Source: an uncultured Nitrospiraceae bacterium
GTDB taxonomy: Bacteria > Nitrospirota > Nitrospiria > Nitrospirales > Nitrospiraceae
Assembly (NCBI GenBank): GCA_963706325.1
Contig: CAVPLT010000001.1
Span: forward strand, 928,001-992,000
Length of the DNA: 64,000 nucleotides
Direction of reading: 5' to 3'
The notes below the pieces were generated by a model. That model searched no databases. It saw only the letters and a program-made list of their open reading frames with translations, and was not told the origin of the DNA. Positions 27,855-62,258 of this stretch are shown here, piece after piece (position 1 is the stretch's first letter; the number at the start of each line of letters is the position of its first letter). A program made the translations under genes and the position numbers.

Positions 27855-28023
27855 GAGTGCCTCCCTCAGCAAGATGTTAATCCAGCGAGAAACTCTGCTG
27901 CGACAATCGACTGCGCTATGCGAATAATATCTTTGCGTCCGGCTGCCTCGTGGTGCGCATAGACCACACAGCCACGCTATGACCCTCGTTGTGGTTCATG
28001 CCCCGCACATGTGGCGCTCAATT

Positions 28024-29148: not shown

Positions 29149-29197
29149 CGGTTCCTGTCTCCCGACCGTTCCTTCCGCGTCATGTGTCGCGAAGGGA

Positions 29198-32478: not shown

Positions 32479-32481
32479 CAA

Positions 32482-38571: not shown

Positions 38572-38588
38572 AAACCATCGCGCGGGCT

Positions 38589-40001
38589 CTAAGTCCTGGA
38601 ATGCCGGAATTGCTCTGCAAAGGTTTTCAATAGCTCGTGAGGCAGTTTGCCGGTGCCGTTTCGAGGCAAGGAGTCCACAAGATACAAGGGGCGCGGTAGG
38701 AAGACCGGGTCGATGCGTTTTCTGAGATCGGCGAGTATCGCGGCACGGCTGAGACCAGGGGCCACTGCAAACGCGCTTAAGCGACCGTTGCCGGACTCTC
38801 CGTGATCCGGCCAATAAAAGGCGCCGTCGAGCACCCCGTTCACGCGGTGCAAAGCCGTGTTGAGCGCCGCCAAAGACGCGCGTTTTCCGGCTACCTTAAC
38901 CAAGTCATAATGTGGTCCAAGCAGCAGGAATTCCCGCCGGTTGCGCAAATGAATGCGATCCGTCAATTTGAGCCATCCGCCCACATGCCCGCCCATGACC
39001 CATGTGCTGTCACCCTCTTGTTTCATCCGCAACTCATGGCAAAGGGTCCAGAGGTCACCATCCGACGTATGTCGCGAGGCGAGCATGCCGCCTTCTGTGC
39101 AGCCGTAGATTTCATGGACCGGCAAATGCCAGAGGTCTTCCGCATCCTGCGCAACCGAGCGGGCCAGCGGCATGGTGGCGGAAATAATGCCCTCGAGGCC
39201 GGTCAGCAGAGTCTGCTCGCAGAGGTAGGCGTTCAGGTGGAAAGGCGTGGTCATCAACCACGCTGGTGAGCCTAGCCGTTCGAGATCCGTACGAATGTCC
39301 GCGGGTAAAATCGAATTGCCGCCATGCAAGCTCCAGCCCCACTGGAAGGGAAGCATGACGGTCGTTTCCAATCCATACATGTGTTGCGCCGGGACGGTTC
39401 CCACTACGGTCCGAGGAGGATAGCTGGCCAAGTCAAACTGCCTGCCCAGTGCCTTGGCTCCCATCACGAGAGATCCCCAACTTTTGGCATGGGCCTGCGG
39501 GAACCCACTGCTTCCTGAAGTGAAGGCGATGGCAGCAATCTGCGCGGCTGGAATAATAGGGTTTTCCGGCGAGCCGGAAGCAGACCAGCCCCAATCGCCG
39601 AGCCGGAATTGAGGCAGCGAAGTGTCCAGTTGGTCATGATCGGTTAACACGTAGGCGTCGGAATAACAGTGCGCGAGTTGATGCAGTGATTCTTCCGCGC
39701 GGCATGGTGGCAAGAGGTTCGTTTGCCGGGCTACTAGTGCCGCAGCAAATCCAACGGCAAAATGATAGCGATCCTTGCAGACGTTGATCGCATAGCGTTG
39801 TGCGGGAAGCCTGCTGGCTAGGCCCCACACCGACCGGAGGAACTCCTGAACCGAGTGTGCGCGATTACCCTGCCAGGCTATGATAGAGGTCGGCGATGCA
39901 TGCGCGAGCAGGGGATAGACAGTCGGCTCGGCGGACGTGCGGGCATGAGAGCGCCGTCGGAGAGTGACCGAAGCAATTTCACTGTCCATTGAGCGCATCA
40001 T
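38589..40001 (-). CDS. AMP-dependent acyl/aryl-ACP ligase (XanA2-like)
   Basis: FTSGSSG, HMYGLE, EIYGCTE, LPRNGTGK. Confidence 0.87.
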   Translation of the reverse strand: MMRSMDSEIASVTLRRRSHARTSAEPTVYPLLAHASPTSIIAWQGNRAHSVQEFLRSVWGLASRLPAQRYAINVCKDRYHFAVGFAAALVARQTNLLPPCRAEESLHQLAHCYSDAYVLTDHDQLDTSLPQFRLGDWGWSASGSPENPIIPAAQIAAIAFTSGSSGFPQAHAKSWGSLVMGAKALGRQFDLASYPPRTVVGTVPAQHMYGLETTVMLPFQWGWSLHGGNSILPADIRTDLERLGSPAWLMTTPFHLNAYLCEQTLLTGLEGIISATMPLARSVAQDAEDLWHLPVHEIYGCTEGGMLASRHTSDGDLWTLCHELRMKQEGDSTWVMGGHVGGWLKLTDRIHLRNRREFLLLGPHYDLVKVAGKRASLAALNTALHRVNGVLDGAFYWPDHGESGNGRLSAFAVAPGLSRAAILADLRKRIDPVFLPRPLYLVDSLPRNGTGKLPHELLKTFAEQFRHSRT

Positions 40002-40279
40002 CGAATCCGATGTTGGGCGATGTAATCTGTCAAGGCACGCAGGGAGGCCAAGGCGGCCCGGTTCTCAGAGCGCAATTCCACACCGTACCGCTTGGATACC
40101 GCCAGGGCGACCTCAAGCATGTCGATGGAGTCCAGTCCCAGCCCCTCACCGAAGAGCGCTGCTTCGGGATCGATGTCTTTTGGCAGCATTTCCAGTTTAA
40201 GCGAGTCGACGATGAGCCGAGCGATGCCCGGCTGGAGATCCTCTTCTGTATTGAGACCCGGATGCGCTGGTGTCGCCAT
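39998..40279 (-). CDS. Acyl carrier protein
   Basis: LFGEGLGLDSIDMLE phosphopantetheine motif. Confidence 0.92.
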   Translation of the reverse strand: MATPAHPGLNTEEDLQPGIARLIVDSLKLEMLPKDIDPEAALFGEGLGLDSIDMLEVALAVSKRYGVELRSENRAALASLRALTDYIAQHRIR

Positions 40280-40280
40280 A

Positions 40281-41111
40281 TTATTGTGCCTCTACAAGTG
40301 TGGCGGTGGAGCAGTTGACTGAAACAGTGGACAGGGCTCGCGCAAGGCCTGCGGTCAAGAGTTCCTCGGGATTGTCGAAAAACGGCTTGTGATGCAGCGG
40401 GAGGCCCAATCGCACCGCTTCGTCAACCAGGAGCCCGAGATATTCGGCCATATGTTCGGCCGTGAAGGCGTTGGTATCATGGAACGTCACGACAACCGGA
40501 ATGGTTTGATTGACGACAGGCAGCTCCCCCCTGAGGAATCGGGATCGGAGCTTTGCCAGCTGAGAGGGGAAGCTCCATTTTCGGAGCAAATGAATCCCCC
40601 AGTTGACTCCATCGAAGGCCTTCACATCCGACAACATCATACGAAGTTGATGCCGGCTGTATCGAAACTGCGTCGACGAATTGTACGACCAATAGGGGGG
40701 CCTGACCAACAGGGTTGGTCGTCCCGTGATGCCCTCGAGGTCTTCCTTTCCATCCAGCAGGGAGCGATCCAGATCCGTCGGGGTCATGCCGGTATGCCTG
40801 ACATGTCCCCGCGCCGTTCCCGTATGCAAACCCAAGAGGTGGCCCTCTGCATGTTCGATGGCCAAGATGGCTCGACCCTCAGATGAGCCGCCCCTCTTGG
40901 GATCTCTCGTCTGCACGAAGAAAATCGCTTTGATGTCCTGTTGGACCGGATTGCGCGCCAAATGGCGTAGCACTTGACCGGTATGGCTATGCGGTCCGTC
41001 ATCAAACGTGAGCAAGAAGCGCAAGGTGAGCCGAGGGTCGTCCGAGTCGGCCGATGCAATGCCCACCGTGCGGATTTTTTCGGCTCCCAGGAAGGCCCCT
41101 AGTGCGTTCAT
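40281..41111 (-). CDS. Polysaccharide deacetylase (CE4/NodB) family protein
   Basis: LTFDDGP, H..G.H, RPPY, FHD motifs. Confidence 0.82.
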   Translation of the reverse strand: MNALGAFLGAEKIRTVGIASADSDDPRLTLRFLLTFDDGPHSHTGQVLRHLARNPVQQDIKAIFFVQTRDPKRGGSSEGRAILAIEHAEGHLLGLHTGTARGHVRHTGMTPTDLDRSLLDGKEDLEGITGRPTLLVRPPYWSYNSSTQFRYSRHQLRMMLSDVKAFDGVNWGIHLLRKWSFPSQLAKLRSRFLRGELPVVNQTIPVVVTFHDTNAFTAEHMAEYLGLLVDEAVRLGLPLHHKPFFDNPEELLTAGLARALSTVSVNCSTATLVEAQ

Positions 41112-48296: not shown

Positions 48297-51200
48297 TTAG
48301 GCCGCAGACGCTTCCCCGCGCTTCGGCAACCATGTGTCGAGGATCGTCTGCAAATCCTTGGGGCGAATCGGCTTTGCCACATAATCGTCCATTCCGGCGG
48401 CAAGGCACTTCTCGCGATCCCCTTTCATGGCGTTCGCCGTCATGGCGACGACCGGCGTGTGTCCTGACGAGCCTTCCATCTTTCGAATCATGGCGGTGGC
48501 CTCAAATCCGTCCATCTCGGGCATCTGGCAGTCCATAAAAATCAGCGGGTAGGGCGCTCGCTCATGAGCCGCGACGGCCTCCTGGCCGTTTCCCACCACA
48601 TCGACACGGCATCCGAGTTTTTCCAATATCTTGCAAGCGACCTTTTGATTTATCGGGTTGTCTTCCGCCAAGAGTAACCGAGTGAGGGTCGAGGTGTGGG
48701 CTTCGGCAAGCGTATGTCGCGTGATGAGAGGTGTCGTAGAGGCTGGTTGCTGTATGCCGGCTGGAGCGGGAGTGTCCAGTAGCCGGCACAGGCACTCAAG
48801 CAGCTGAGATTGTCGCAGCGGTTTCGTAAGATAGGCATCGACGCCGTGGGCTTGCGCCCTGCCGCCGTCTCCTCGTCGTCCTACGGTGGTGAGAACGACG
48901 ACCCGCGTGGCGGCCGTCGCAGGATCGCTCTTGAGGCCTGTGGCGACTTGGAATCCATCCATGTCTGGGAGATGCAATTCGATCAACGCGAGGTCGAACG
49001 GTTTTTGTTTCGCTGCGGCAGCCTGCGCCCTCTCATAGGCGTCGGGGCCGTTCTGCGCCTCGACACAATCTATTCCGTAGGGCACAAGTTGTTGGTGGAG
49101 CGCATGTCTGGTGGTCCTATTGTGATTGACCAGCAAAACACGGCGCCCACGAAGCTGTGTCAGGGAAATCGTGAGAGGCGGGGGGGCGAGCGCCGCCTCC
49201 GGCAGCTCTGCGGTAAACCAGAAGGTGCTGCCCTGGCGCGGACGGCTCTCGATTCCGATCTGGCCCCGCATCTGTTTAACGAGGCGTTGGCAAATGGCGA
49301 GCCCGAGGCCGGTGCCGCCATATCGACGAGTGGTTGAACTATCGGCCTGGGTAAATGCTTGGAACAGTCGCGCCTGCACTGCTTCGGGAATGCCGATCCC
49401 GGTATCCGTAATCGTGAATCGCAGTACAGCCGCTTCTCCCCCCCCTTCGCACGTGACATGGAGAAAGACTTCGCCCGTGGGCGTGAACTTAATGGCATTG
49501 CCGATCAGGTTGACGAGGATCTGTCGGACACGGCCTGGGTCGCCAAGGACACCGATCGGCACCGCGGCATCGACCAGGCCGATCAACTCAAGGCCCTTAC
49601 TCTGAGCCTGTTCCGCGAGCAGCTCCAAGGTATCTTCTACGGTCGTCCGGAGGTCGAAGGCGAGATTCTCAAACTGAAGTTTGCCGGCTTCGATTTTTGA
49701 GAAGTCGAGAATGTCGTTTACCAGAGTCAGTAAGGCGTCGCTCGAGCGGCGGACCGTATCAGCAAACTCATGCTGTTCTTCGGTCAGATCCGTATCGAGT
49801 AACAGACCTGTCATGCCGATAATCGCATTCATCGGGGTTCTAATTTCGTGACTCATGGTCGCGAGAAAATCGGTCTTGAGTTGGACGGCCTGAAGGGCTT
49901 GATCCCTGGCTTTAGCGAGTTCACTATTCTTTGCTTCCAACTCCTGAGCGGTTAGAAGGAGTGCTGCCTCAGCTTTCTTCCGCTGTGTAATGTCATGTCC
50001 CACTGCGAGGTAGCCTAAGATGACGTTCTCCTCATTGCGTAGAGCGGTGATGGTCACGAGCGCTGTGAAGTGGGTTCCATCTTTCCTGACGTAGGTCCAC
50101 TCGTGTTCGTCGAAGCCACCTTGCCGCGCATTGTGGACGAGGACATTGAAGCCTCGCACGGGTAGCCCACGCGGCGTGCTCAGCTCCTGACCGCGGCGCT
50201 CGATCTCGGCTGGAATGTGCAAGATATTGGGGGAATGTTTTCCGAGCATTTCCTCGGCCGCGTAACCTAGCAGCGCTTCGGCTCCTGCATTGAAGGTCGT
50301 GATGCGGCCCGTGGTATCGGTCGCGATAATCGAGAGACGCCTGGCGGCATTGAGAATACCCATCAGCTGTGCATTGGTGGACAGCAGGGCGTCTTCCAAA
50401 TGCTTGCGCTCGGTGACATCGGTCAGGATCACAAGTGTGGCGGACTTTCCCTCGTATGTCACGGGAGCGGCGGCGATTTCCGCAATAATCACCCTGCCGT
50501 CAAGACGACGTACCCGCTCCACCATCTGCGCATCGCGCCCCTCCCGGTCGATTCCCCCCGCCCGTTCTTCTACGAGTGATCGCGCGTCCCTCTGCATAAA
50601 GTCCGCTATGGGACGCCCCAGGAGTTGTGACAGGGTCATGGCGCCTAACAAAGTCGCACATGCATTATTGGCAAAGACTATTCGATTGCTACAGATGACG
50701 AAAATGGAGTTCGGGGACAACTCTACGAGCGACCGATAACGCAACTCGCCGGCCCGCACGGTGGATTCCAGCTGCTTGGCGTCAGTGATGTCGACGGCGA
50801 TACCTGCCAAGCGATAGACCTTCCCTTCTTGGTCTTTCACCGGGAATCCTCGGTCGCGAATCCATCGCACGGTGCCGGTCGCCGTCACGATACGGTATTC
50901 CTCGTCATAGGGAAGAGAGGTTTGGCAGGCTGCCGCGACGGCGATGCGTTCACGATCATCCGGGTGGATGCATTCGATCCACAGCATGGGGTTCGCGTAC
51001 AAGTCGTCACGGGATCGGCCCCAGATGGATTCGAAACCGGGACTGACGTACAGCATGTGATGTGTATCGGCCGATGTCAGCCAAAACACCGCGTCGATGT
51101 GGTCCGCCAGCTGTCGAAAGCGTTCTTCGCTTTCCTGGAGAGCCCCTTCCAGCGACTTCCGTTCTGAAATGTCGCGGAACATACCTGTATATTTTCGAGA

Positions 51201-53162
51201 CTGTCCGATTGCCAGCTCACTTACAGAGAGGTGTACGTCGACGAGCCTGCCGTCCTTACGAACGACCTGCACCTCGCGTGAGGATCCGATGATGCTCCGT
51301 TTGCCGGCGCTCAGAGACATCGCAAGAAAGTCGTCATGCTGTTCCCGATAGGGGGATGGCATCAAAAGTTTAATATGGCTCCCCACCAGGTCCTGCTCCT
51401 CATATCCAAGCAGGGCAAGCACGGCAGGATTGACGTTTTCGATCCGACCTTGGTCGTCAATGACCATGATCCCGTCGATCGCGCTGTCAAATATGGATTG
51501 GATTTTCCCCTCGCTGTTACGTAGGGCGGATTCGGTGCGTTCATAGTCGGTGATGTCCAGAACGGTTCCGATCATTGTAATGGGCCGGCCGGTTGCGTCA
51601 CGATGCACCACCCCACGGCAGTGAATATGCCGGATTTCTCCGTCGGGCCTGAGAATCCGGCATTTCAGATTGTAAGGCGAGTCATCGTGAAGTGACGTAT
51701 TCACCGCCTCCCGTACTCGGTTTCTGTCATCCGGATGAAGCGCGTCCAGGAAGACTTCGTAACTGGGCCTGGTATGGCCTTGATCGAACCCAAAAATGTG
51801 AAATTGCTCATCAGACCAATGGAGGGATCCATTCTTTAAATCCCATTCCCACGAACCCAGATGAGCCAGTGCTTGCGCTTCGTTCAGAGCTTGTTGCTTC
51901 TTCGATAGGTCCTGTTGGGTCCGCGTTGCCGCCGAATCCAGTGTTTTCCGCGCTGAGATGTCAAGATGGATGCCGGCCGCTCGCAACGGCGCGCCGGATG
52001 CATCTCGGGCGAGGACGCGCCCGCTGCCAAAAATCCATTGCCAGACGCCGCTCCTGTGTAGCAAGCGATGTTCGCTCGAATAACTAGGCGTCTCTCCCCG
52101 AAGATGGGCCGCGACGGCCTCCATCACCGCGGCTTTATCGTCGGGGTGGAGCAGCTGCTCCCAACTCCGGATGTGCGGTTCGATTTCCTCTAGGCGATAT
52201 CCGAGCATGCCGGCCCATCGTTCGTTGAACATCACATGTCCGCTCGGAATGTCCCATTCCCATGTTCCGATATCGGCGGCGTCGACGATCATGTCCATCC
52301 GACTGGCTTGTCGTTCCACCGTCTGTTCATGCACGGTGAGCAATCTCTCCAACTCCACGATTCTCTTGCTCAGCTGGGCAACCCTGGCATCGTTCGAATC
52401 GTTTCTAGTGACGGTCGGCTGCGGGGTGACCGACGCTGGCGATAAGGAAGTCGTGGCCACATGTGGCGCAAGGGTGATTTGTGCACAGAGGGCGAGCGGT
52501 TTGAATAGGTGTGCCGTCGCCTCGGGAATGACCTGCTTGCTGAAGAGGATAACTGAAAAGATATCTCCGTTGGGCAGTGGAGCCCCGAATCCCAGCACCG
52601 AACGCACGCCATACGGGAGTACGAATTCGTCTTGGGCAGGAATATACGGGCTTCCTTCGGCATGAAGCACATGAAAAACATTGAACAGATGTTCCTCCGA
52701 GTCAAGGAGCAGATGATGATTCGGTTGAGTCAATTGAGAAAGTGAGATGCCCAGTTGGTGAAAGAGCTGGCTGAACATCGGCAGTTGGGCGAAATCGTCG
52801 GGGCTACCGAGCGGGACGACTCGGTAACGACTGGAGCGCGAGGGATCGTCCCAGCCTTGTACGGCGCTAGCGCTAGCCAGCAAGGTCAGGCAAGGAAGGG
52901 ACGGATCATCTGGGATCTTCCCTAGTTTTGTGACCGCCAGGTCGCGAAGCTCCGGCGGCAGACGACCATAGGGAGTTGTCTTGAACAATCGGACGAGGAC
53001 GCAGGCCGATTCTTCACTCTGGTCCAGGGTAAAGGAGTTGTACAGATACCGGACCAGGCGATCGGCGGCGGCCTCGAGACTGGTTGCGCCTGTCCCCAGC
53101 ACGCGGAGGGCCGCTCCGCAGGCTGTCATGTCCCTGAGATGGAACGATCGAAGATGGTACAT
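48297..53162 (-). CDS. Cytoplasmic hybrid histidine kinase: unknown N-domain, about six PAS, HisKA, HATPase, two REC
   Basis: GTWEWD/GSWEWD PAS, LMPSPYREQHDDFL FixL-like PAS, MSHEIRTPMN, GGTGLGLAI, MDCQMPEMDG. Confidence 0.92.
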   Translation of the reverse strand: MYHLRSFHLRDMTACGAALRVLGTGATSLEAAADRLVRYLYNSFTLDQSEESACVLVRLFKTTPYGRLPPELRDLAVTKLGKIPDDPSLPCLTLLASASAVQGWDDPSRSSRYRVVPLGSPDDFAQLPMFSQLFHQLGISLSQLTQPNHHLLLDSEEHLFNVFHVLHAEGSPYIPAQDEFVLPYGVRSVLGFGAPLPNGDIFSVILFSKQVIPEATAHLFKPLALCAQITLAPHVATTSLSPASVTPQPTVTRNDSNDARVAQLSKRIVELERLLTVHEQTVERQASRMDMIVDAADIGTWEWDIPSGHVMFNERWAGMLGYRLEEIEPHIRSWEQLLHPDDKAAVMEAVAAHLRGETPSYSSEHRLLHRSGVWQWIFGSGRVLARDASGAPLRAAGIHLDISARKTLDSAATRTQQDLSKKQQALNEAQALAHLGSWEWDLKNGSLHWSDEQFHIFGFDQGHTRPSYEVFLDALHPDDRNRVREAVNTSLHDDSPYNLKCRILRPDGEIRHIHCRGVVHRDATGRPITMIGTVLDITDYERTESALRNSEGKIQSIFDSAIDGIMVIDDQGRIENVNPAVLALLGYEEQDLVGSHIKLLMPSPYREQHDDFLAMSLSAGKRSIIGSSREVQVVRKDGRLVDVHLSVSELAIGQSRKYTGMFRDISERKSLEGALQESEERFRQLADHIDAVFWLTSADTHHMLYVSPGFESIWGRSRDDLYANPMLWIECIHPDDRERIAVAAACQTSLPYDEEYRIVTATGTVRWIRDRGFPVKDQEGKVYRLAGIAVDITDAKQLESTVRAGELRYRSLVELSPNSIFVICSNRIVFANNACATLLGAMTLSQLLGRPIADFMQRDARSLVEERAGGIDREGRDAQMVERVRRLDGRVIIAEIAAAPVTYEGKSATLVILTDVTERKHLEDALLSTNAQLMGILNAARRLSIIATDTTGRITTFNAGAEALLGYAAEEMLGKHSPNILHIPAEIERRGQELSTPRGLPVRGFNVLVHNARQGGFDEHEWTYVRKDGTHFTALVTITALRNEENVILGYLAVGHDITQRKKAEAALLLTAQELEAKNSELAKARDQALQAVQLKTDFLATMSHEIRTPMNAIIGMTGLLLDTDLTEEQHEFADTVRRSSDALLTLVNDILDFSKIEAGKLQFENLAFDLRTTVEDTLELLAEQAQSKGLELIGLVDAAVPIGVLGDPGRVRQILVNLIGNAIKFTPTGEVFLHVTCEGGGEAAVLRFTITDTGIGIPEAVQARLFQAFTQADSSTTRRYGGTGLGLAICQRLVKQMRGQIGIESRPRQGSTFWFTAELPEAALAPPPLTISLTQLRGRRVLLVNHNRTTRHALHQQLVPYGIDCVEAQNGPDAYERAQAAAAKQKPFDLALIELHLPDMDGFQVATGLKSDPATAATRVVVLTTVGRRGDGGRAQAHGVDAYLTKPLRQSQLLECLCRLLDTPAPAGIQQPASTTPLITRHTLAEAHTSTLTRLLLAEDNPINQKVACKILEKLGCRVDVVGNGQEAVAAHERAPYPLIFMDCQMPEMDGFEATAMIRKMEGSSGHTPVVAMTANAMKGDREKCLAAGMDDYVAKPIRPKDLQTILDTWLPKRGEASAA

Positions 53163-53267
53163 GGGCGGCAGCGTGAATCTCCGGACGCAGAAAGAGTTTT
53201 CCGGATACTCTTTCGGTGCGCGGTGGACCGAACTTAAGTTGATGACAACTGTCCATAAAGAGATGCC

Positions 53268-54086
53268 TCATTCAGACAAGTGTGTCAGGTAAAAGGCAGC
53301 AGCCTGGGATCTCCTCGTAAGGTGCAGCTTGGTGTATACGTTGGCTAGATAATTCTTGACCGTTTTGTCGCTGAGGCCGAGTTCTGCCGCGATTTCTTTG
53401 TTGGTTTTTCCTTGGGCAATAAGCGGAAGCAGGCGTTGCTCCTGAGGCGACAGCAGATGCCGCCCTCGCTCAGGCTCTCGATCCGCAAGTTTACGAAGAT
53501 AGGCAAAGGTATGCCTGGTCATGCCGGGATCGAGATACGACTGCCCCTTACTGACCGTCCGCAGCGCATGGAGGAGCGTTTCGGTTCCGGCGTCCTGTAG
53601 CACATACCCATGAGCTCCGGTGGCCACAGCCGACAGTAGGACTGTGTCATCCAGCGTATCGGTGAGGAACAGGATACGCGTGGTCGGCAGCTTAGCGAGA
53701 ATCTCCTTAGCCGTGTCGATGCTTGCGCCGTCCTGCACCCGTAGGTCGAGCATCACAAGGTCAGGTTTGAGTTGAAGAATGAGCGGCACTGCGTCCTGTC
53801 GCAAACTTGCCTCTCCGATCACGGTAAAGTCTGTGACGGATTCGAGCAGTGTGCGTATACCCACTCGCACCAGTTCTTGCGGATTGACAATGAACACGCG
53901 GGACAGTTTCCCCTGATTCTGATTCATAGGTGTATTCCAAGTTGATGGATGCTGGATTGCTTTATGGTTCACAACTCTGAGAGAAGCCTCTTGTTCCGAC
54001 AATCCGATTGGAGAGGCGGATACCATGGCGCCGGATGGCGCTGAACTCGGTGCTCGAGTGGGTTTTGGTTCGTGATGTATCGCCAT
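53268..54086 (-). CDS. NarL/FixJ-family response regulator (REC + LuxR HTH)
   Basis: PDLVMLDL, LSPQEQR...GKTNKEIA..L.LSDKTVKNY; start 54086 (AAAGGAGA RBS) or 53927. Confidence 0.9.
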   Translation of the reverse strand: MAIHHEPKPTRAPSSAPSGAMVSASPIGLSEQEASLRVVNHKAIQHPSTWNTPMNQNQGKLSRVFIVNPQELVRVGIRTLLESVTDFTVIGEASLRQDAVPLILQLKPDLVMLDLRVQDGASIDTAKEILAKLPTTRILFLTDTLDDTVLLSAVATGAHGYVLQDAGTETLLHALRTVSKGQSYLDPGMTRHTFAYLRKLADREPERGRHLLSPQEQRLLPLIAQGKTNKEIAAELGLSDKTVKNYLANVYTKLHLTRRSQAAAFYLTHLSE

Positions 54087-54187
54087 GGCGTGATCTCCTT
54101 TCCGTAAAATACCTCTGCCCTCATGCGACCCCTCTTTCGTCAGAGGGGCTTCGTCATTCCGTCGAACATGGAGCACCGACCACACCA

Positions 54188-55501
54188 CTAAGACACCTCT
54201 GCCAGGTGACCGAGCGTGGCCTGTTCCACGATGGGAAATGGGATATGAGCTCGGACCCCGACGTCCACACGAGAGAGCGCCAGAACGACATTTTTCCCAC
54301 CGAATCCGAAGCTGTTGATCAGGGCTTTGCCGATGCGAGAAGGTCTGCCCTGCAATGCCACGTAATCCAGGTCACAGGTAGGGTCAGGGTTCGTCAAATG
54401 CAACGTGGGGGGAATGAATTGATGCTCCATGGCCAGTGCCGTACCGATCACCTGAAAGGCGCCACTCGCTGCGAACGCATGGCCCAGAGCAGATTTAAAC
54501 GAGCTGACAGGTACGCGATAGGCATGGGATCCCAGTGATTCTTTGATGGCGGTTGTTTCGATACTGTCGAGCTCCATGGTCCCCAGGCCGCAGGCGTTGA
54601 CATATTCGACTTCTTCAGGAAACCAACTGGCGGTAATCAAGGCCCGGTCGATTGCGCGTTTTTGCTCCTTGCCCGACGCCAACGGACGCGCCATGGAATA
54701 GGCATCGCATGTGAAGCCCCATCCTTCAAGCTCCGCGTACATGTGAGCTCCGCGTAAGCGCGCGTGATCGTAGTCCTCCAGTATGAGGCAACCGGCGCCT
54801 TCGCCCAGCACCATGCCACAACGTGTTCGATCAAATGGACGAGGCAGATTGCGGACCGTGCCGCCGTGATCGGGCGCGAGTACCCGTCCTGCCTCCATCG
54901 CCGAAAAAATGGTGGGATGCAGCGGGGCTTCAGTACCTCCGGCCAAAATGATATCGGCATTGCCGGAGCGAATCATCTCGAATGCTCGGCCGATGGCATT
55001 GGCCGTCGAGGAGCATCCGATGGAGTAGGTTTCGCATTCTCCGTTGATACCGAGCGCAATGGCAATTTCTCCCGACACGGCGTTGGGGAATGTCGATGCC
55101 ATGGTGAAAGGGCTGAGGTGTTGGTGCTTCAGCATGCTGTCGTGTGCCGCAAATGCCTCGCGCAGTCCTGCGATAGACGTGCCGAGGCAAATCGCCATTT
55201 CCGAACGATTTTCATGCTCGATGTCCAGTCTGGCGTCCCGCACCGCCATCAGCGCCGCCGCGACGGCGAAATGACTGACGCGGCCCATGCGTCGAGCTTG
55301 CTTCCGCGGAATAAAATCCTCGGCATCGAAGTCTTTTACTTCGCCGGCGAGGCTGGAGGAAAACGGGGCCGTATCGAAAGAGGAGAGCGGCGCAATCCCG
55401 CTCTGGCCTGTGCTGAGCAAATGCCAAAACGTCTGCAAATTATTTCCCAGAGGGGACACGATACCAAGCCCCGTGATGACGACTCTGCGCATCTGTTTCA
55501 T
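54188..55501 (-). CDS. FabF-like ketosynthase with non-canonical active site
   Basis: RRVVITGLG, GCSS (catalytic Cys), YVNACGLGT in place of NAHGT, KSALGH, INSFGFGG; GGGAGG RBS. Confidence 0.9.
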   Translation of the reverse strand: MKQMRRVVITGLGIVSPLGNNLQTFWHLLSTGQSGIAPLSSFDTAPFSSSLAGEVKDFDAEDFIPRKQARRMGRVSHFAVAAALMAVRDARLDIEHENRSEMAICLGTSIAGLREAFAAHDSMLKHQHLSPFTMASTFPNAVSGEIAIALGINGECETYSIGCSSTANAIGRAFEMIRSGNADIILAGGTEAPLHPTIFSAMEAGRVLAPDHGGTVRNLPRPFDRTRCGMVLGEGAGCLILEDYDHARLRGAHMYAELEGWGFTCDAYSMARPLASGKEQKRAIDRALITASWFPEEVEYVNACGLGTMELDSIETTAIKESLGSHAYRVPVSSFKSALGHAFAASGAFQVIGTALAMEHQFIPPTLHLTNPDPTCDLDYVALQGRPSRIGKALINSFGFGGKNVVLALSRVDVGVRAHIPFPIVEQATLGHLAEVS

Positions 55502-55517
55502 GGATTCAACCTCCCTG

Positions 55518-56819
55518 TTACGACTGTTGATGACGGTCACGACATGCTTCACCCTCATGCCAAGCGATCAGGTGTTCATGATGGCTCTGAGACACGGCGG
55601 ACGGCGGGTAGTACTTGTCGTAGAAACTTAGGTCCAGATGGTGGGCCTGACAGGCCACGATGGATTTAAACGCGTCGACGTGGGCGGGAAATCGTCCATA
55701 GGTCTGAACGACGTACTCGCAAAATGCGATGGCGGCGGCGATGCCTTGTTCAGAGTGCCGCGGGATCTGAGGTTTGATCGACGGATTGTTCCAAGGCTGA
55801 GAGTCGGGGGTTGCATACAATCCGGTAGCCCCGAATTTGGAGGCGATCAGGTTGAGGACGGCCTCCTCCATGTTGCCGATCAGGGGAGGACAGGGGGCCT
55901 CCCAGACGCCCGGGAGACCGACGGGATTCGGTCGGCGAGGCCCGGTGGTCGGCATGTGAAACTGAAAGCCGAGTCCCGGAACAAGATGTGGTTCGATGCC
56001 TAGGAGGTGGCGACCGCTCCCGACGCTGTGAATTCCGCCACCCAACCCCATGGCCTGTTCCATAAGAAAAATATGCTCCGCGACGATTCCCTGCTCCTGA
56101 AGGGCAGTATCGCTGATGGCGTTATCCAGGTCGCGCAACGTCATCGTGCGGCGCTTGGCCGGGTCATCATGGAGGTGTCCTCCGCGGCTTTTACTGAAAC
56201 GATCGAGCCCGCAGGCGCTATTTCCGTTATCGGTGTCGACAATGAAATAGCCGTACTCATCACTGAGCAAGACCAAGAGTAGGTTCAGATAGACGCTGGC
56301 GATCTCGGTGACAGGAATGAAGTACGTAGAGCCGGGACGATTGGCATACCACTGGTTGAAACTGAGCATGAATGGCAGCTGCCGGGGAATATCGAGTCGC
56401 TCGGCGGACAATTCCGTCAATTTCGTCATGGCCGGGTCTTCAGGCGACGCCGATTCCTTGACAAAATAGGTTCCTGAATCATTCGTGAAAAACAGCCGAG
56501 TCGTTTGAGCGGCACAGGCGCTGGGTACCGTGCGCCCTTGGAGACTCATAAGGGCCATTCCCTGACCGTCCTCGGAGTGAGGACGAGATGAAAACTGCAT
56601 GTCCGCCGTGTGAGCGCCGGTTTTCCCTACCCCAGCAAAAATCAGATGGCGCTCTTCTTCCGCGTTCAGGGGTAGGGGAGGGAGGGAGCTCTTATACTGG
56701 AGAGGGCCGGCGGGTAATTCCATGCCGCACCCGAACCGTCGCGTCTTTCGCTGTTCCAGCAATTCCATAAATGCTTGCACAGAAGTGGATCGGGAAACCT
56801 GGCACGCTGAATTCGCCAT
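55518..56819 (-). CDS. Nitroreductase-fold (putative FMN-dependent) oxidoreductase-like protein
   Basis: N-terminal RKTRRF, GRTVPSA, IFLMEQAMGLGG patterns typical of the nitroreductase fold; AAGGAGG RBS. Confidence 0.6.
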   Translation of the reverse strand: MANSACQVSRSTSVQAFMELLEQRKTRRFGCGMELPAGPLQYKSSLPPLPLNAEEERHLIFAGVGKTGAHTADMQFSSRPHSEDGQGMALMSLQGRTVPSACAAQTTRLFFTNDSGTYFVKESASPEDPAMTKLTELSAERLDIPRQLPFMLSFNQWYANRPGSTYFIPVTEIASVYLNLLLVLLSDEYGYFIVDTDNGNSACGLDRFSKSRGGHLHDDPAKRRTMTLRDLDNAISDTALQEQGIVAEHIFLMEQAMGLGGGIHSVGSGRHLLGIEPHLVPGLGFQFHMPTTGPRRPNPVGLPGVWEAPCPPLIGNMEEAVLNLIASKFGATGLYATPDSQPWNNPSIKPQIPRHSEQGIAAAIAFCEYVVQTYGRFPAHVDAFKSIVACQAHHLDLSFYDKYYPPSAVSQSHHEHLIAWHEGEACRDRHQQS

Positions 56820-56912
56820 GTCGTCCTCCTTATGTCGGTCCCCGCTGCGTCGCCGGTGAGCGGCACGTTCTGCGGATGATGCGACACCCTACTGGAAACA
56901 TTTAAGGAAGGA

Positions 56913-56932
56913 ACCTACCCGGCCGGGTAGGT
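56913..56932. promoter_or_regulatory. lux-box-like operator, perfect 20-bp palindrome
   Basis: ACCTACCCGGCCGGGTAGGT fits ACCT-N12-AGGT; candidate -10 hexamers lie 21 nt away on each side. Confidence 0.8.
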
Positions 56933-57076
56933 CTCATGAATGGGACGTTGCTCTATGGTGCGGATGCGCGTGGTTGAGTTTCAGACAGGACTACGTACAG
57001 AGAACGAGAAAACGCAACGCTCTTATTCTCTCCTTCCTGCCGTCGCAGGGAGGCGTCACCACCAGGAGGCATGCAT

Positions 57077-58633
57077 ATGACACCATCAACTTCTCCCGGA
57101 TGCCCGTATCACTCGGCAGCGGCCGCCCAATCGAACGTCGCGCCGGCCCCTGCATCGCCAGGCCGCACATTGGCGGATCTTCCCGGACCTAAGGGACTGC
57201 CGATTCTTGGAAATCTTTTGCAGTTGGACTTGAAGCATCTCCACACCGTCCTCGAACAGTGGGCGCGCGAGCATGGTCCGATGTATCAATTCCGGATTGC
57301 CCACAAGGCCGTCGTGGCCGTGACCGACACGGACCTCATCAACGAAGTCCTGCGTAAGCGACCGGATGCGTATCGCCGTCTGAATGCCATCGAACCTGTG
57401 TTGAAAGAGATGGGGATCAATGGAGTATTTTCCGCCGAAGGGGATCATTGGTATCGACAACGTCGGATCGCCATGCAGGCCCTCAATACTGCTCATTTGC
57501 GCCAGTTCTTCGAAACGCTCGTCAAGGTGACGGGTCGATTGAAAGCCCGGTGGGAGAAGGCCGTGGCCAAAGGGAGTGCCGTGGAGGCGCAAAAAGATTT
57601 GAGTCGGTACACCATCGATGTGACCGCCAATCTGGCATTTGGATACGATGTCAATACGCTTGAAACAGAAGGCGATGAGCTCCAGGGTCATTTGGCGCGG
57701 ATCTTCCCCATGGTCAATCGTCGCATCAATGCGCCGTTCCCGTATTGGCATTTTATGAAGACGCCGGCGGATCGAGCCTTGGAGGAATCGTTGGCGTTTG
57801 TTCACCGGGCGATCCGCGGGTACATCGCCAACAGCCGGGCTCGCTTGGCGAACGATCCTGAGTTGGCGGCCCATCCGACCAACTTTCTGGAGGCTATGTT
57901 GGCCACGCGCGAGACGGATGGTCCCGAGTTCACCGACGAGGAGATCTCCGGCAACGTCTTGACGATGTTGCTGGGCGGGGAAGACTCCACCGCCGCAACG
58001 ATGGCCTGGATGTTTCATTTCTTGGCGGAGCATCCTGATATTCAGGCGCGCGCGCAGACGGAAGTGGACGAGGTGCTGGGCAACGGCGACATGCTGACGG
58101 CCTATCGTGACCACGAACGACTGCCCTATGTGGAGGCCGTTGCATTCGAGACGATGCGCTTGAAGTCCGTATTTCCCGTGCTGTTTTTAGGCACGAATCA
58201 AGACGTCCAGTTAGGTGGTGTGCGGATTCCGGCCGATACGGCGATCTTCTTGCTCACCAGGCAATGCGGGATGCAGGAGGAGGCCTTTGCGTCGCCGCAG
58301 CAATTCTTGCCGGAGCGTTGGTTGGTATCTGGCGCGGGTACTCAGGAGGGACACAATACAAAAGCGTTCGTTCCATTTGGCGCCGGTCCGCGGTTTTGTC
58401 CGGGACGTAATTTGGCGCTCCTTGAAATCAAAGCCATCATGGCGATGCTCTGTCGAAACTTTTCGATTTCCAAACCAATGAACGCTCGTTCAGTCGAAGA
58501 GCAATTCGGCTTTTTAATGGCGCCCGCAAATCTCTCCGTTGTGATGCGCAGGCGAAACAATGCGTCACGTTCAATCGGTGAGGAGTTCCCGCACGCCGGC
58601 TTGGAGCTGCCGTTCGCGACGACGCGATCGTAA
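57077..58633 (+). CDS. Cytochrome P450
   Basis: PGPKGLPILGN, I-helix GGEDST, ETMR (ExxR), PERW, FGAGPRFCPG haem Cys; AGGAGG RBS. Confidence 0.95.
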   Translation: MTPSTSPGCPYHSAAAAQSNVAPAPASPGRTLADLPGPKGLPILGNLLQLDLKHLHTVLEQWAREHGPMYQFRIAHKAVVAVTDTDLINEVLRKRPDAYRRLNAIEPVLKEMGINGVFSAEGDHWYRQRRIAMQALNTAHLRQFFETLVKVTGRLKARWEKAVAKGSAVEAQKDLSRYTIDVTANLAFGYDVNTLETEGDELQGHLARIFPMVNRRINAPFPYWHFMKTPADRALEESLAFVHRAIRGYIANSRARLANDPELAAHPTNFLEAMLATRETDGPEFTDEEISGNVLTMLLGGEDSTAATMAWMFHFLAEHPDIQARAQTEVDEVLGNGDMLTAYRDHERLPYVEAVAFETMRLKSVFPVLFLGTNQDVQLGGVRIPADTAIFLLTRQCGMQEEAFASPQQFLPERWLVSGAGTQEGHNTKAFVPFGAGPRFCPGRNLALLEIKAIMAMLCRNFSISKPMNARSVEEQFGFLMAPANLSVVMRRRNNASRSIGEEFPHAGLELPFATTRS

Positions 58634-58691
58634 CGGTGGGTTGCCTCCGGGCGATAGAGGGCACTTAGGTGGCAGCTGAGGCGCTTCGTTC

Positions 58692-59546
58692 CTATCGAGC
58701 GAGATGCGAGGGGCTTGGCGGTTGAATGGTAGGGAGAGGTCTGTCGGAGGTCAGTGAGACCTTAGATGACTGGCGTGGAGCGGGTGGAACCAACAAGCCC
58801 TTCGCGCTGTTCTGCCATTGGGCGACCGCCGCCCAGCGATTTTCGACGCCGCCGAGCTTTTGATAGACATTCTTGAGGTGAAATTTAATCGTATTGAGGC
58901 TGACGTGCAGGATGATGGAAATTTCCCAGTTCGTTTTGCCTTCGGCGACCCATCGCATAATTTCTTCTTCTCGGGCCGTCAGAGCGGGACTGTCCGTCGA
59001 CGTCTGGTCGTCGGTGACTTGGGTCGTGGCGCGCAAGTAGGCCAAATGAAAATGAGGCGCCAGAATTTGCATCATGGTCCGAAGGCGGGTCATCAATCGC
59101 TGGTCGAAGTTGCTGAAGGCGTAATAGGTGCACAGTCCGAGCACACCACGCACCCCCACGGTCAAGCAGGTCTTGATTCCCGCATCGAGTTTGAGATTAA
59201 TCACTTCACGCGGAATCGGCATATCAAGGCAGTCTTCGCTCGATACGGTGCCGATATGAGTTTTTTGAAGCAGTTGGATCGCAGGATCCGTGACATATCC
59301 CTGCGTCGCATAGAGATGGGTATGTTCATCACCGTAGGTTGAATGTCCGATCTCCAATGCCTTTTTCTGGATATGAAACGATCCGTTGGCCGAGAATCGG
59401 TGGGGAATCAACGAGGCGACGGCTGCCGTCAGGTCGGGCAATTGAGCGCGCTCCTGTATGCGTCGCACGCGTTCCATGACTTCGCCCATGTGTTGGAATT
59501 CTTTGCGCGAAAGATATTGAAAGCTCTCAGGTCCCCGAAAGATCAT
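58692..59546 (-). CDS. LuxR-family regulator with autoinducer-binding-like N-domain (LuxR solo)
   Basis: LTAREEEIMRWVAEGKTNWEISIIL..S..TIKFHLKN quorum-sensing-type HTH; Y...DP motif in the N-domain; no REC; AGGAGG RBS. Confidence 0.88.
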   Translation of the reverse strand: MIFRGPESFQYLSRKEFQHMGEVMERVRRIQERAQLPDLTAAVASLIPHRFSANGSFHIQKKALEIGHSTYGDEHTHLYATQGYVTDPAIQLLQKTHIGTVSSEDCLDMPIPREVINLKLDAGIKTCLTVGVRGVLGLCTYYAFSNFDQRLMTRLRTMMQILAPHFHLAYLRATTQVTDDQTSTDSPALTAREEEIMRWVAEGKTNWEISIILHVSLNTIKFHLKNVYQKLGGVENRWAAVAQWQNSAKGLLVPPAPRQSSKVSLTSDRPLPTIQPPSPSHLAR

Positions 59547-59944: not shown

Positions 59945-60925
59945 CTATCGCTGGATTTTCAAGGTGGGGCCAAGGGTAAGCCACTTCGTAGGGCCGAGCG
60001 CGGCCATATGAGGAAGGTGAGCCACATACCAGAACACGATATCCTGTTCTTGCACGCCTTGATTGTCTTCGTCATACCCGAGCTGACCCCGAGCCCCGAA
60101 CACCCATGGGATGTCTTCGGCTGGATTTGCACGCCGGATCGCAATATCGAGGTCAGCAAAGCTGTCGCGTTCTCCGTCATCTCTGAGCGGGGCATACCCA
60201 TCGCCAGGGAGAATCCAGACGCCGTGTCCTGTCGGCTGGTCACGAACGAACCAGGCTCGATGTGTACTCACGTTTTTGACGTCATTCCGTTCATTCGTAT
60301 ATTTCTTCCAACCGGGGCCCCACCCTGAGTCCGACGCTCCGTCGTCGTGTCGGAAGACCTGGTCCATTCCGTTGCCGTTGATATCGAAGTCGAAGCGCCA
60401 GTAGGGATTGTGCATGTGATCCGTATTGCATGAGAGCCCGCGGCTTTGTAGGACCGGTCGGATCTCTCCGTCCTCGGATAGATGCCACGATTGGTAGAGG
60501 TGATATTCACCGATTCTGGCATACATTCCCAGCTCCAGCCATTTCACGCCCTGCTGGGTGGCACTCTCGAGGCACACTTTGTGGTCTCCGCAGTTCACAA
60601 TCGGGACTAGGTCCTGCCAACGAAGGCGGTCCTGGAAAGGTCCGCAACGCCCGCTGTCCGCGCGCGAGCCGAACCAGGTGAAGGGATTCCACCATCGGCG
60701 CTCCTTCACATATTTTACGCGGACGACCGGCATACTGGCCTTGGCCAGCACCTGTTCCCCGGCATAGGTGACATTGCGAAGCGCGAGACCGGTGCTGTCT
60801 TTGACCTCGTAATCGAGGCTCCAGCGTCCCCAGTCAAGATGTTCCGACGCCTCGTCTGCCAAGCCAGGCAGAGGGCGTGTGAGAGCGGAGAACAGCAGCA
60901 GAGCAATCACCGCAACGCGTGTCAT
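59945..60925 (-). CDS. Secreted protein resembling the catalytic domain of copper amine oxidase
   Basis: Signal peptide; GLALRNVTY.G..V....SMP, IGEY....W.L..DGEI, HMH...RFDFDING, DIVFWY.....H. Confidence 0.7.
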   Translation of the reverse strand: MTRVAVIALLLFSALTRPLPGLADEASEHLDWGRWSLDYEVKDSTGLALRNVTYAGEQVLAKASMPVVRVKYVKERRWWNPFTWFGSRADSGRCGPFQDRLRWQDLVPIVNCGDHKVCLESATQQGVKWLELGMYARIGEYHLYQSWHLSEDGEIRPVLQSRGLSCNTDHMHNPYWRFDFDINGNGMDQVFRHDDGASDSGWGPGWKKYTNERNDVKNVSTHRAWFVRDQPTGHGVWILPGDGYAPLRDDGERDSFADLDIAIRRANPAEDIPWVFGARGQLGYDEDNQGVQEQDIVFWYVAHLPHMAALGPTKWLTLGPTLKIQR

Positions 60926-60945
60926 CTGCTATCCTTTCGATTCGC

Positions 60946-61737
60946 CTATCTAGGCGGTTCATCCCCTGCGTCCAGCACGCGGTCTTCCGTCAGATCCACC
61001 TGCGCCCAGTACTTGGGGTCTCCATCCTGTCCTTGGGAGAAGGTAATCCAGATGACCCGGTGCTCATACCCCGGATCGTTTTTGAAGAACCCACGATCCG
61101 GTTGCATCAGGAGCCCATGTCCCTGGAGCGCCTGCACCTTCCCCGCCAGGCGGGCATCGGCACGAGCTAATTCGATCCCTCGTTGCACATCTTGCGGTCC
61201 CTCGGCAGGCAGGTACCCTTCATATCTCGAAGCTTCCAGTACGGCCGTGTCTTTCATGCGGACATCGATCGCGACATTGTGGCTGTAGCTGAAGTAGGTG
61301 ATTCGGGCGAGTCGGGCTTGATTTCGGCAGCAACCGAATGCGACTTTGCCGTCCGGCGACAGGAGATTTGCATCGATGAATCCCCACCGGTCACCCAGAA
61401 GGGTAACCACTCTGGGATCGGCTTCGGCTGCTTTCCGTAGTGCGACAATTTCAGAAGCTGAGAGGACCGCGGCCTGATTAGGAGATCGCAGGACGGCTGC
61501 CTCATTCACTGTCCCTGCCATCTTAGGTTTGATGTGCCCGACGGATTCGTCGTCGGTGAACTCGAGGATATGTCTGGCCGGGATCTGAGCCGGGAGCGGT
61601 GTCTTCGAAACAATGGTTTCGGGATCTTCCGGACCAAAGGGACCGCGGGAGGCGGCATCGAGACTGCATCCGGGTATGACCACGAGCAGCAGCAGCGTTG
61701 GATAGGGCCACATCGTACGCCGACCTTTCATGGCCAT
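60946..61737 (-). CDS. Lipoprotein resembling copper amine oxidase N-terminal (N2/N3) domains
   Basis: Lipobox-like IPGC; two repeats LS..E......A..DPRV / A..LARADARL ending VDLT..RV; TGATG-coupled to the upstream gene. Confidence 0.55.
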   Translation of the reverse strand: MAMKGRRTMWPYPTLLLLVVIPGCSLDAASRGPFGPEDPETIVSKTPLPAQIPARHILEFTDDESVGHIKPKMAGTVNEAAVLRSPNQAAVLSASEIVALRKAAEADPRVVTLLGDRWGFIDANLLSPDGKVAFGCCRNQARLARITYFSYSHNVAIDVRMKDTAVLEASRYEGYLPAEGPQDVQRGIELARADARLAGKVQALQGHGLLMQPDRGFFKNDPGYEHRVIWITFSQGQDGDPKYWAQVDLTEDRVLDAGDEPPR

Positions 61738-62258
61738 CACACCATCGCCAGTTTTCCGGCCACGCCGAGCGCCAGCCTGGACACTTGAGCCGCCGCCTTG
61801 ATGACGGCGGACCGCTTCTTTCGCGAGGCGGCATCCAGCAAGCATTTTGTCAAAAGATCCTTGTAACTGGTGATCTCGTCCGCCTCAAACGGGACGATCC
61901 TGGCCACCGTCTCATTGTTGAAGGTGTTGGCCAGTTGCAGATACAGATTGGAGATCTCCGCCGCGTAAATTCCTCGGCGCAAGGGATCGTTTTTGTAGGT
62001 CTCAAACTTCTTTCGCAGCGCCGCCACGGCGTCAAGAAGCGCCGTTTGACGCACTTTGGTGTCGTCCTGACGGCCGACGGCAAAATCTACGCCGCCCAAT
62101 TGATCGACCAATGTTTGGGCCTCATCTCGGGCATGGTCCACCTGGGTGGCCAGTTGCTCGATGCTGGTAGTGGCGCTCTCGGCCGTCTCCATCAATTGCT
62201 TGATGAGGCTGTCATTGTCCTGAAGGAACGTGACCACTCCTTCGAAGCTGCGGTTCAT
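61737..62258 (-). CDS. Alpha-helical hypothetical protein, 173 aa
   Basis: GGAGG RBS, operon spacing, heptad-like composition, small-residue hydrophobic C-terminal helix. Confidence 0.7.
   Translation of the reverse strand: MNRSFEGVVTFLQDNDSLIKQLMETAESATTSIEQLATQVDHARDEAQTLVDQLGGVDFAVGRQDDTKVRQTALLDAVAALRKKFETYKNDPLRRGIYAAEISNLYLQLANTFNNETVARIVPFEADEITSYKDLLTKCLLDAASRKKRSAVIKAAAQVSRLALGVAGKLAMV

Follow-up and report, generated by a model that had tools for sequence, protein, structure and literature searches.

A 64,000-nucleotide stretch of DNA from an uncultured Nitrospiraceae bacterium (contig CAVPLT010000001.1, positions 928,001 to 992,000; the whole stretch is called the window here) contains a gene cassette that probably encodes a LuxI-independent autoinducer circuit, with specificity groups set by cytochrome P450 enzymes and a chemistry deduced from its genes. 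The core of the cassette consists of a LuxR-type receptor gene (luxR2), a lux-box-like palindrome, a flavoenzyme gene and a gene for an atypical FabF-like ketosynthase (KS), and it is the conserved core of one inherited unit. The ligand pocket of the receptor varies along with an optional tailoring enzyme, and this suggests that the cassette makes an undescribed chemical signal. The evidence is evenly poised on a more specific proposal, that a FabF-like KS with a Cys-Cys-His active site and a nitroreductase-fold oxidase form a new class of LuxR autoinducer synthase that supplies luxI-less Nitrospira with their native quorum signal, with at least three P450/receptor dialects, and that the pair is probably also found in a Sulfurirhabdus-like lineage. 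The original prediction, made from the letters of the window, had proposed a circuit not based on acyl-homoserine lactones (AHLs), and an open reading frame (ORF) check bore out the positions and strands of all six of its genes (Table 1).

The distribution of the core genes and of the palindrome shows that they are inherited together. The family set was a sample of 151 Nitrospiraceae genomes, including that of the window (G000, 96% complete, 8 contigs). The flavoenzyme has matches in 45 of these genomes: 39 have an orthologue with 57-100% identity, and six have a distant paralogue only. A LuxR2 orthologue (at least 40% identity over the ligand domain) is found in exactly the same 39 genomes. 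The pattern CCTACCC-N4-GGGTAGG is likewise found in 39 genomes, 38 of the 39 with the module (G108 is the exception) and G050, which is the single case among the 112 non-module genomes and has the box on a 3.4-kb contig of a genome that is 70% complete. The pattern occurs once per genome, and twice in G111, which holds two modules. The synteny check suggested with the original prediction thus found the core genes and the palindrome co-conserved across 39 of the 151 genomes. Close homologues carry the labels Nitrospira or Nitrospiraceae, and in a sample of 301 genomes of the phylum the flavoenzyme orthologue is confined to Nitrospiraceae. In metagenomes, 69 loci anchored on the KS were kept, and 11 further matches were ordinary FabF. 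The flavoenzyme adjoins the KS in all 58 of these loci that extend 150 nt or more upstream, and all 38 that extend 2.4 kb or more have luxR2 on that side. Two loci (L243, L244; 7657-14566) have a duplicated module, in which luxR2, flavoenzyme, KS and response regulator genes precede another luxR2-like gene, a KS that is degenerate (~30%) and a porin of the FadL type; the family box was not matched there.

Within genus g1 the cassette is highly divergent, with identities of 44-49% for LuxR, ~60% for the flavoenzyme and ~66% for the KS, compared with 77-86% for a flanking amine-oxidase-like gene. Allelic signalling cassettes diverge in a similar pattern. Outside the family, the KS of Sulfurirhabdus autotrophica (WP_165922962.1) is 55% identical and has the same NACGLG motif. 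A KS cluster 85% identical to the Sulfurirhabdus protein and a flavoenzyme cluster of 48-49% identity come from contigs that agree in five sizes, which is indirect evidence that the two genes are co-located in a Sulfurirhabdus-like betaproteobacterium. A metagenome scan with the Sulfurirhabdus KS gave no match, and an alignment scan found Nitrospira-type modules and ordinary FabF only, with no DNA of the Sulfurirhabdus lineage. A description of the module was not found in the open-access literature; subscription papers and unexamined supplements, bioRxiv among them, might mention it.

The geometry of the promoters suggests that LuxR2 activates the enzyme operon. The perfect lux-box-like palindrome that had been noted between the P450 and flavoenzyme genes is present, and it belongs to a family of boxes with the consensus ACCTACCC-N4-GGGTAGGT. 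The genome has 18 perfect palindromes of at least 20 bp, so the perfection of the 20-mer is not unique. It is nevertheless the sole perfect one among the 42 ACCT-N12-AGGT sites of the genome, and in a weight matrix made from module boxes, the window box included, it scores 32.5 bits and the next genomic site 11.3. Conserved spacing was studied in 69 distinct promoters, not all independent since close relatives are among them, that have a box with at most one mismatch within 300 nt of the flavoenzyme. The sequence TAnnnT lies 21-22 nt past the box toward the flavoenzyme in 68 of the 69, and in two or fewer at any other offset. This offset puts the box centre near -43. LuxR acts as an activator from a box centred near -42.5, and the arrangement is that of a lux-box promoter, a 20-bp palindrome near this position ahead of a -10 element with a predicted start site. 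A mirror TAnnnT is present on the far side in 18 of 18 promoters with a divergent P450 of the window's type (P450A), versus 5 of 50 with luxR2 there, which indicates that the P450 belongs to the regulon. A generic sigma-70 scan did not pick up the box promoters, as is expected where an activator site replaces the -35 element. Since there is one box per module, the main target appears to be the enzyme operon itself, as for luxI. Another ACCT-N12-AGGT site in the window (60750-60769, 14/20 palindromic) lies inside the amine-oxidase-like gene and does not match the family consensus; it is probably a chance occurrence.

LuxR2 is a receptor of the quorum-sensing type, as had been proposed, with an altered ligand pocket. 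It matches GerE with an E value of 7e-18 and Autoind_bind with 21.5 bits, under the cut-off of 23, and its model aligns to the ligand domains of LasR, RhlR and CviR with Z scores of 14.1-13.8. The best NCBIfam match is EpsA (TIGR03020), nearly full length at 96 bits, where the cut-off is 170. His75 stands at the position of TraR Trp57, and Tyr79, Asp87 and Pro88 are kept. In an alignment to RhlR and CviR the second Trp is replaced by Ser and the Gly by Cys, giving H-Y-D-P-S-C in the window instead of W-Y-D-P-W-G. Within the LuxR2 family the first pocket position is F, H, L, M or Y and the last two are S and C, and the positions of Trp57, Trp85 and Gly113 are changed in all members shown. The TYDQCS and TYDQYI motifs of PluR/PauR-type receptors are not present either. 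These residues support a pocket of non-AHL type. By motif only, N. defluvii D8PAV3, which is listed as a solo (PMC4338825), fits the LuxR2 pattern with F-Y-D-P-gap-C, and the solos UR5 and UR44 fit it with F-D-P-S-C.

The receptor pocket covaries with the type of P450. There are 75 loci with complete luxR2, flavoenzyme and KS genes (frameshifted L037 and partial loci were excluded), representing 64 distinct modules. Fifteen of these have P450A, eight have P450B, 36 have no P450, and five are too short to type. P450B is unrelated to P450A, has ~400 aa, and is located directly after the KS, with the enzyme genes between it and luxR2. The original prediction had made the P450 part of the circuit. 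This holds in that P450A shares the box wherever it is divergent from the operon; on the other hand the enzyme is an accessory, since P450A is found in 15 of the 59 typed modules and the unrelated P450B in 8. Among 185 LuxR columns, none separates the P450 types better than position 75. It is His in 14 modules and Tyr in one with P450A, Leu in six and Met in two with P450B, and Phe in 40 and Leu in one without a P450, the lone Leu being on a contig that ends after the KS.

Trees were made from modules filtered at 93% identity (35 rows, 33 typed). In a tree of the flavoenzyme and KS the P450 type changes seven times, and the residue class also changes seven times. In a LuxR tree built without column 75 the P450 type changes twice, with supports of 91 for the P450B clade, 86 for P450A without L205, and 98 for both together. 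The flavoenzyme and KS tree rejects P450B (p-AU 0.001) and P450A (3e-5) as clades, for groups that were set by P450 content with the tree already seen. The P450 types cut across genera: g10 and g19 have A and B, g37 has A, B and none, and g1 has A and none. Hitchhiking could explain the association of P450A because its gene abuts luxR2, but P450B is not explained in this way. Because the receptor type follows the P450, the P450 most likely matures the signal.

The flavoenzyme is a member of the nitroreductase superfamily by fold, which agrees with its earlier description as nitroreductase-like. Sequence searches with the 433-aa protein gave no match in Pfam or the PDB and one weak, unrelated match in NCBIfam (E 0.034). 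Its model (pLDDT 84.7) has a Foldseek E value of 1.4e-4 to 3hoi, and in VIA all 50 rows listed are nitroreductase-fold proteins. The Z scores are 13.5 for BT_0217 (rmsd 2.7 over 174 residues), 13.3 for 3hj9, 12.4 for BmdC, 11.7 for ThcOx, 10.5 for AlbAB and 9.9 for 4qlx, so that BmdC and ThcOx, of the SagB/ThcOx/BmdC/TyzC group of flavin oxidases, rank high and yet under the uncharacterised BT_0217 and 3hj9, at identities of 10-17%. Weak PF00881 matches occur in 8 of 40 distant homologues, and the ESM Atlas gave a 16% nitroreductase lead for the flavoenzyme and generic FabF clusters for the KS. R24, R28 and F29 are invariant in an N-terminal RxxRRF motif, which we take to be consistent with a motif for the phosphate of flavin mononucleotide (FMN). 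Two distant homologues, P0143 and P0211, are fusions to an MpaB/Lcp-type oxygenase (863 aa) and an acetoacetate-decarboxylase-like domain (783 aa), respectively.

The KS resembles FabF and lacks its Cys-His-His triad. Cys304, in the motif NACGLG, takes the position of FabF His303; Cys163, Lys336 and His341 are kept, and the invariant Glu157 is a candidate base. The Cys is found in 111 of 120 KS homologues (seven are partial or unmatched, one has Ser and one Phe) and in 62 of the 64 modules (two are unread). The TIGR03150 score is 426 bits, under the cut-off of 493.75, and a separate FabF-like gene adjoins acpP in the genome. The best matches are FabF models and structures, which places the KS outside the FabH-like clade of PpyS and DarB; the distinction from these two was made by description. 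A complex prediction for the KS and flavoenzyme scored 0.00, which speaks neither for nor against an interaction. The His at the FabF His303 position serves malonyl decarboxylation, and it is absent from non-elongating KS domains. Because it is absent here, the KS probably loads an acyl group from housekeeping acyl-acyl carrier protein (ACP) and moves the chain to a nucleophile other than malonyl. KS0 domains lacking the His have been described (PMC6855096). As had been noted, the locus itself has no ACP: the PP-binding matches of the genome are at the acpP-fabF locus, at 40019-40201 of the window, and in a 3163-aa frame on contig C4.

The relatives of the window suggest that the cassette once stood beside an AHL system. 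The reported absence of luxI from the window was confirmed and extends to the genome, where PF00765 has no match (LuxM/AinS and HdtS types were not searched). The best tblastn match of two Nitrospira LuxI proteins to the genome has an E value of 0.036 over 35 aa. PF00765 finds luxI in 51 of the 151 family genomes and in none of the 17 others of the window's genus. We infer that genus g1 is Nitrospira lineage I, which is reported to be without luxI (PMC5767232) and in which the ligand of LuxR has been called unclear (PMC12342949). In each of the 20 luxI loci fetched there is a separate luxR, 22-30% identical to LuxR2, and a separate box, ACCTGGCG-N4-CGCCAGGT, which is the NspR1 box of Tan et al. 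(PMC8553950). A luxI gene adjoins the module in three of the four genomes with both (G011, G051 and one copy in G111). Of the two G111 modules (L142, L143), one adjoins luxI and the other has P450B and FadL. The order in L141 and L215 is luxR2, box, flavoenzyme, KS, luxR1, luxI, NspR1 box, response regulator and kinase. The KS and flavoenzyme had been predicted to occupy the position of luxI, and this is not literally borne out by the surviving luxI genes, which sit just downstream with their own luxR and box. For the same reason the cassette is a circuit of its own, parallel to the AHL system.

In other loci luxI is gone, and a luxR1 with the ligand domain deleted remains together with an NspR1-type box. 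In the window's lineage the KS is directly followed by the response regulator and kinase genes, which are 67-68% and 57% identical, respectively, to those of L141 and L215. The luxI/luxR1 pair was probably lost in this lineage, the direction being read from the series of loci and not from a rooted tree. A remnant of the NspR1 box was not found between the KS and kinase (the best site has seven mismatches) or, with the pattern used, elsewhere in the genome. The short LuxR1 ORFs look intact and have ~180-200 aa, keeping the N-terminal helices and the helix-turn-helix (HTH) and lacking the core of the ligand domain; they lie beside an NspR1-type box with luxI not adjacent (L151:4540-5103, L156:7114-7734, L149:5633-6277, L180:12650-13225, L184, L187, L194, L206 and L209). 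Such a protein is possibly a ligand-independent regulator derived from an AHL receptor. The original prediction made the response regulator and kinase the relay of the circuit. Such a relay is conjectural, as the pair was probably inherited from the AHL locus and directly follows the KS in some lineages only. In addition, the receiver of the response regulator is degenerate, with VNPQ where an acidic pair would be expected and LQD in place of the Lys; the Asp is kept and the changes are conserved in close relatives. It thus departs from the phosphorylatable receiver of a canonical two-component system and would suit transcriptional control.

A published experiment bears on the cassette promoter. 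Tan et al. predicted a box of this family, Nspbox68 (ACCTACCCCGGTGGG...), which precedes a 'hypothetical protein' on the nspI scaffold (PMC8553950). The primers for Nspbox68 are an exact match to L215 and stop at the ATG of the flavoenzyme. The Nspbox68 reporter gave 1.06 +/- 0.1 with NspR1 and C8-HSL and 0.94-1.14 with four sigma factors, and the true NspR1 box gave 196.7 and 14.0 (PMC8553950). NspR1 thus did not drive the Nspbox68 promoter in E. coli. An AHL from a distant LuxI, which the original prediction offered as an alternative driver, is disfavoured by this negative result and by the changed pocket.

The following circuit would account for these observations. Ligand-bound LuxR2 would bind the palindrome near -43, at a spacing that is conserved, and activate the flavoenzyme-KS operon and, in the window, the P450 gene. 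The KS would be acylated on Cys163 by a chain from housekeeping fatty acid synthesis, as there is no local ACP, and would hand the chain to another nucleophile, either a second acyl unit, as in PpyS and DarB, or an amine. We lean slightly toward the head-to-head route since a KS forms C-C bonds by default. The FMN enzyme may then desaturate or aromatise the product, as its fold and the TyzC and DarA precedents suggest. Where present, the P450 would oxidise the product and so set the specificity group that receptor residue 75 matches; the covariation is observed, and its cause is presumed. The product would feed back on LuxR2. After the probable loss of luxI and luxR1, the response regulator and kinase behind the KS would be a likely read-through output, if they are co-transcribed with it.

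Several points weigh against a self-made signal. The circuit is pieced together here from genes, predicted folds, promoter geometry and covariation. The trees are quick ones with moderate supports, and a test of independent pairs had only three pairs, all concordant, and was not significant (p 0.25). Matching of receptor and P450 would also be expected if the ligand were the substrate of the P450 and not its product. Modules and luxI nearly exclude each other, with both in 4 of the 39 module genomes versus 13 expected if independent, a comparison confounded by kinship. The regulon is tiny, as the genome has just the one box, and the response regulator and kinase of other genera are under the AHL box. 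Distant relatives of the flavoenzyme (Dadabacteria, Rhizobium plasmids and Nitrospira paralogues; ~30-42% identity) have neighbours without the KS, LuxR2 or box, and so its family is not a dedicated signal synthase. Finally, the published negative result was obtained with NspR1, not LuxR2, and 58 of the 61 promoters tested in that study were also never induced in the E. coli host (PMC8553950).

Three other explanations have to be weighed. LuxR2 could sense an outside cue other than an AHL, or have no self-made ligand, and switch on an operon whose effector or lipid product is not sensed back. The linkage and promoter results fit such an output operon equally well, and in Photorhabdus the operon beside pluR is an output, PpyS having been found by deleting stand-alone KS genes (PMC7154725). 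We consider this unlikely, because it leaves unexplained both the sorting of the pocket with two unrelated P450s across intervening genes and the divergence of the g1 cassette relative to its flanking gene. An inducible modification or quenching system is improbable. Here LuxR2 would detect a foreign acyl compound, possibly AHL-like, and the P450, the flavoenzyme and the KS, which has a thiolase fold, would oxidise, reduce or transacylate it. Receptor and P450 would be expected to match if both bind the same substrate, the AHL pocket retains its Tyr, Asp and Pro, the cassette adjoins the AHL locus in genomes with both, and the nitroreductase fold includes fatty-acyl enone reductases (4qlx). 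However, a P450 is missing from 36 of the 59 typed modules, whereas the flavoenzyme and KS are constant components, and none of the LuxR2 proteins shown retains either of the two AHL-binding Trp residues. The conserved genes of the module were not seen to include any for a lactonase, an acylase or beta-oxidation, and the best fold matches include the biosynthetic oxidases BmdC, ThcOx and AlbAB.

It is very improbable that LuxR2 is a conventional eavesdropping solo that answers the AHLs of neighbours, or of a local luxI, with the operon as an ordinary AHL target. The LuxR-type fold and the adjacency of luxI in three of four genomes would agree with this, and eavesdropping was left open for lineage I by Kop et al. 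(PMC12342949). Against it, the three pocket positions are changed in all members shown, luxI is always accompanied by its own luxR and box in the loci fetched, and the pocket follows the P450, not the presence of luxI. The failure of NspR1 with C8-HSL to induce the Nspbox68-type promoter points the same way (PMC8553950). A self-made signal remains the preferred reading of the cassette.

Table 1. Genes and promoter elements of the cassette and its neighbours in the window.
Feature	Position	Strand	Remarks
luxR2, quorum-sensing-type LuxR, 284 aa	58692..59546	-	Altered ligand pocket; GerE HTH
P450A, accessory cytochrome P450, 520 aa	57071..58633	+	Divergent from operon, same box; Pfam p450 E 3e-93
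Predicted -10 element TATGGT of P450 promoter	56954..56959	+	21 nt from box
Candidate LuxR2 operator, perfect 20-bp palindrome ACCTACCCGGCCGGGTAGGT	56913..56932	.	Centre ~-43 to both promoters
Predicted -10 element TAGGGT of flavoenzyme-KS operon	56886..56891	-	21 nt from box
Nitroreductase-superfamily flavoprotein, 433 aa, predicted FMN oxidase/desaturase	55518..56819	-	First operon gene
Atypical FabF-like KS, 437 aa	54188..55501	-	ORF to 55558; Cys163, Lys336, His341 kept
NarL-type response regulator, non-core	53268..54188	-	Start probably 53927 or 54086; degenerate receiver
Multi-PAS hybrid histidine kinase, 1621 aa, two receivers, non-core	48297..53162	-	Common to relatives' AHL locus

The start of the KS is most likely 55501, given a GGAGG ribosome-binding site ahead of it and homologues of 437 aa. 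Residues 1-270 of the kinase have no Pfam match and are conserved in relatives. Upstream of luxR2, at 59945-61845 and on to 63647 (minus strand), are the amine-oxidase-like gene, which matches Pfam Cu_amine_oxid below the cut-off, and an unknown partner. This pair is conserved in the same place in genera g1, g8 and g12, and it was rejected as part of the module since it flanks the module in some genera only. A FadL/TodX-type outer-membrane transporter is encoded at 9624-10955 (minus strand), with a second copy on contig C7. In relatives a FadL gene stands next to luxI loci and some modules, and the window FadL is 53% identical to its product. FadL was rejected as a module-specific transporter, as it flanks 14 of the 20 luxI loci fetched. 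At 28000-41100 (minus strand) there is an aryl-polyene-like type II cluster with the ACP mentioned above, a polysaccharide deacetylase, an AMP-binding enzyme, an acyltransferase, a LolA-like protein, an MMPL protein, a KS and partner, a ketoreductase, two glycosyltransferases and an AI-2E transporter. The cluster does not co-segregate with the module, and although it has its own KS, ketoreductase and ACP it was discarded as acyl donor or flexirubin-like partner. Among the 17 other genomes of the window's genus just 6 have its MMPL-family gene, which is also found in many luxI genomes that lack the module.

In wastewater plants, and in many soils and waters, nitrite is oxidised mainly by Nitrospira. 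The receptor, operator, candidate synthase and specificity determinant lie within ~5 kb, and one variant of the promoter has already been cloned as a gfp reporter. If the circuit is as proposed, a new synthase chemistry would join the few known non-AHL signals of LuxR receptors, dialects formed by a receptor and a tailoring enzyme would exist in a Gram-negative system, and AHL-centred work on quorum sensing and quenching in nitrifying biofilms would miss a signal of a dominant group. New here are the bidirectional promoter, the covariation of receptor and P450, the series of luxI losses and the bearing of the published negative reporter on the cassette promoter.

The cassette appears to work like a LuxI/LuxR or PpyS/PluR circuit, yet by its features it belongs to neither. 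It resembles NspI/NspR1 (also NjpI/R and AubI/R) in organism family, in the neighbouring locus, in a 20-bp ACCT...AGGT bidirectional box, and in the response regulator and kinase genes. It differs in having a LuxR of 22-30% identity and the box ACCTACCC-N4-GGGTAGGT rather than ACCTGGCG-N4-CGCCAGGT. NspR1, on the other hand, keeps the WYDPWG pocket and has a LuxI synthase, and the published reporter showed no cross-activation. Unlike EpsA, the XrtB/PEP-CTERM-associated LuxR, LuxR2 has no exosortase or exopolysaccharide genes seen in its module. The KS is similar to KS0 domains, which can lack the decarboxylation His (PMC6855096), and to KS-like acyltransferases such as cispentacin AmcF, in that the active Cys is kept and this His is lost. 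In contrast to KS0, it is a stand-alone type II enzyme with a His-to-Cys change and no ACP or chain-length-factor partner in the locus, and it scores 197 bits with the AmcF model, under the cut-off of 325 and under the FabF score of 426. The combination of an acyl-transferring enzyme with a nitroreductase-fold flavin oxidase that desaturates the acyl product is known from TyzA/TyzC (PMC10404671; PMC12479983). That group, with OxzAB and the NasY-nitroreductase clusters, is likened to the cassette by description and uses an N-acyltransferase instead of a KS. The cassette has no ThiF cyclase, and the available passages on those clusters do not report a link to LuxR.

Further close parallels are the Photorhabdus PluR/PpyS system (photopyrones) and PauR/DarABC system (dialkylresorcinols, cyclohexanediones), which likewise do without an AHL synthase and combine an altered LuxR pocket with a KS that links acyl units and, in DarA, an oxidising partner (PMC7154725). 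PpyS is FabH-like (PMC7154725), while the cassette KS is FabF-like and Cys-Cys-His. The Photorhabdus pockets are TYDQCS and TYDQYI and that of the cassette is H/F/L-Y-D-P-S-C, and the oxidase of the cassette has a nitroreductase fold, unlike the Photorhabdus partner. In addition, the cassette enzymes are directly under the box of their receptor, whereas the adjacent target of pluR is pcf.

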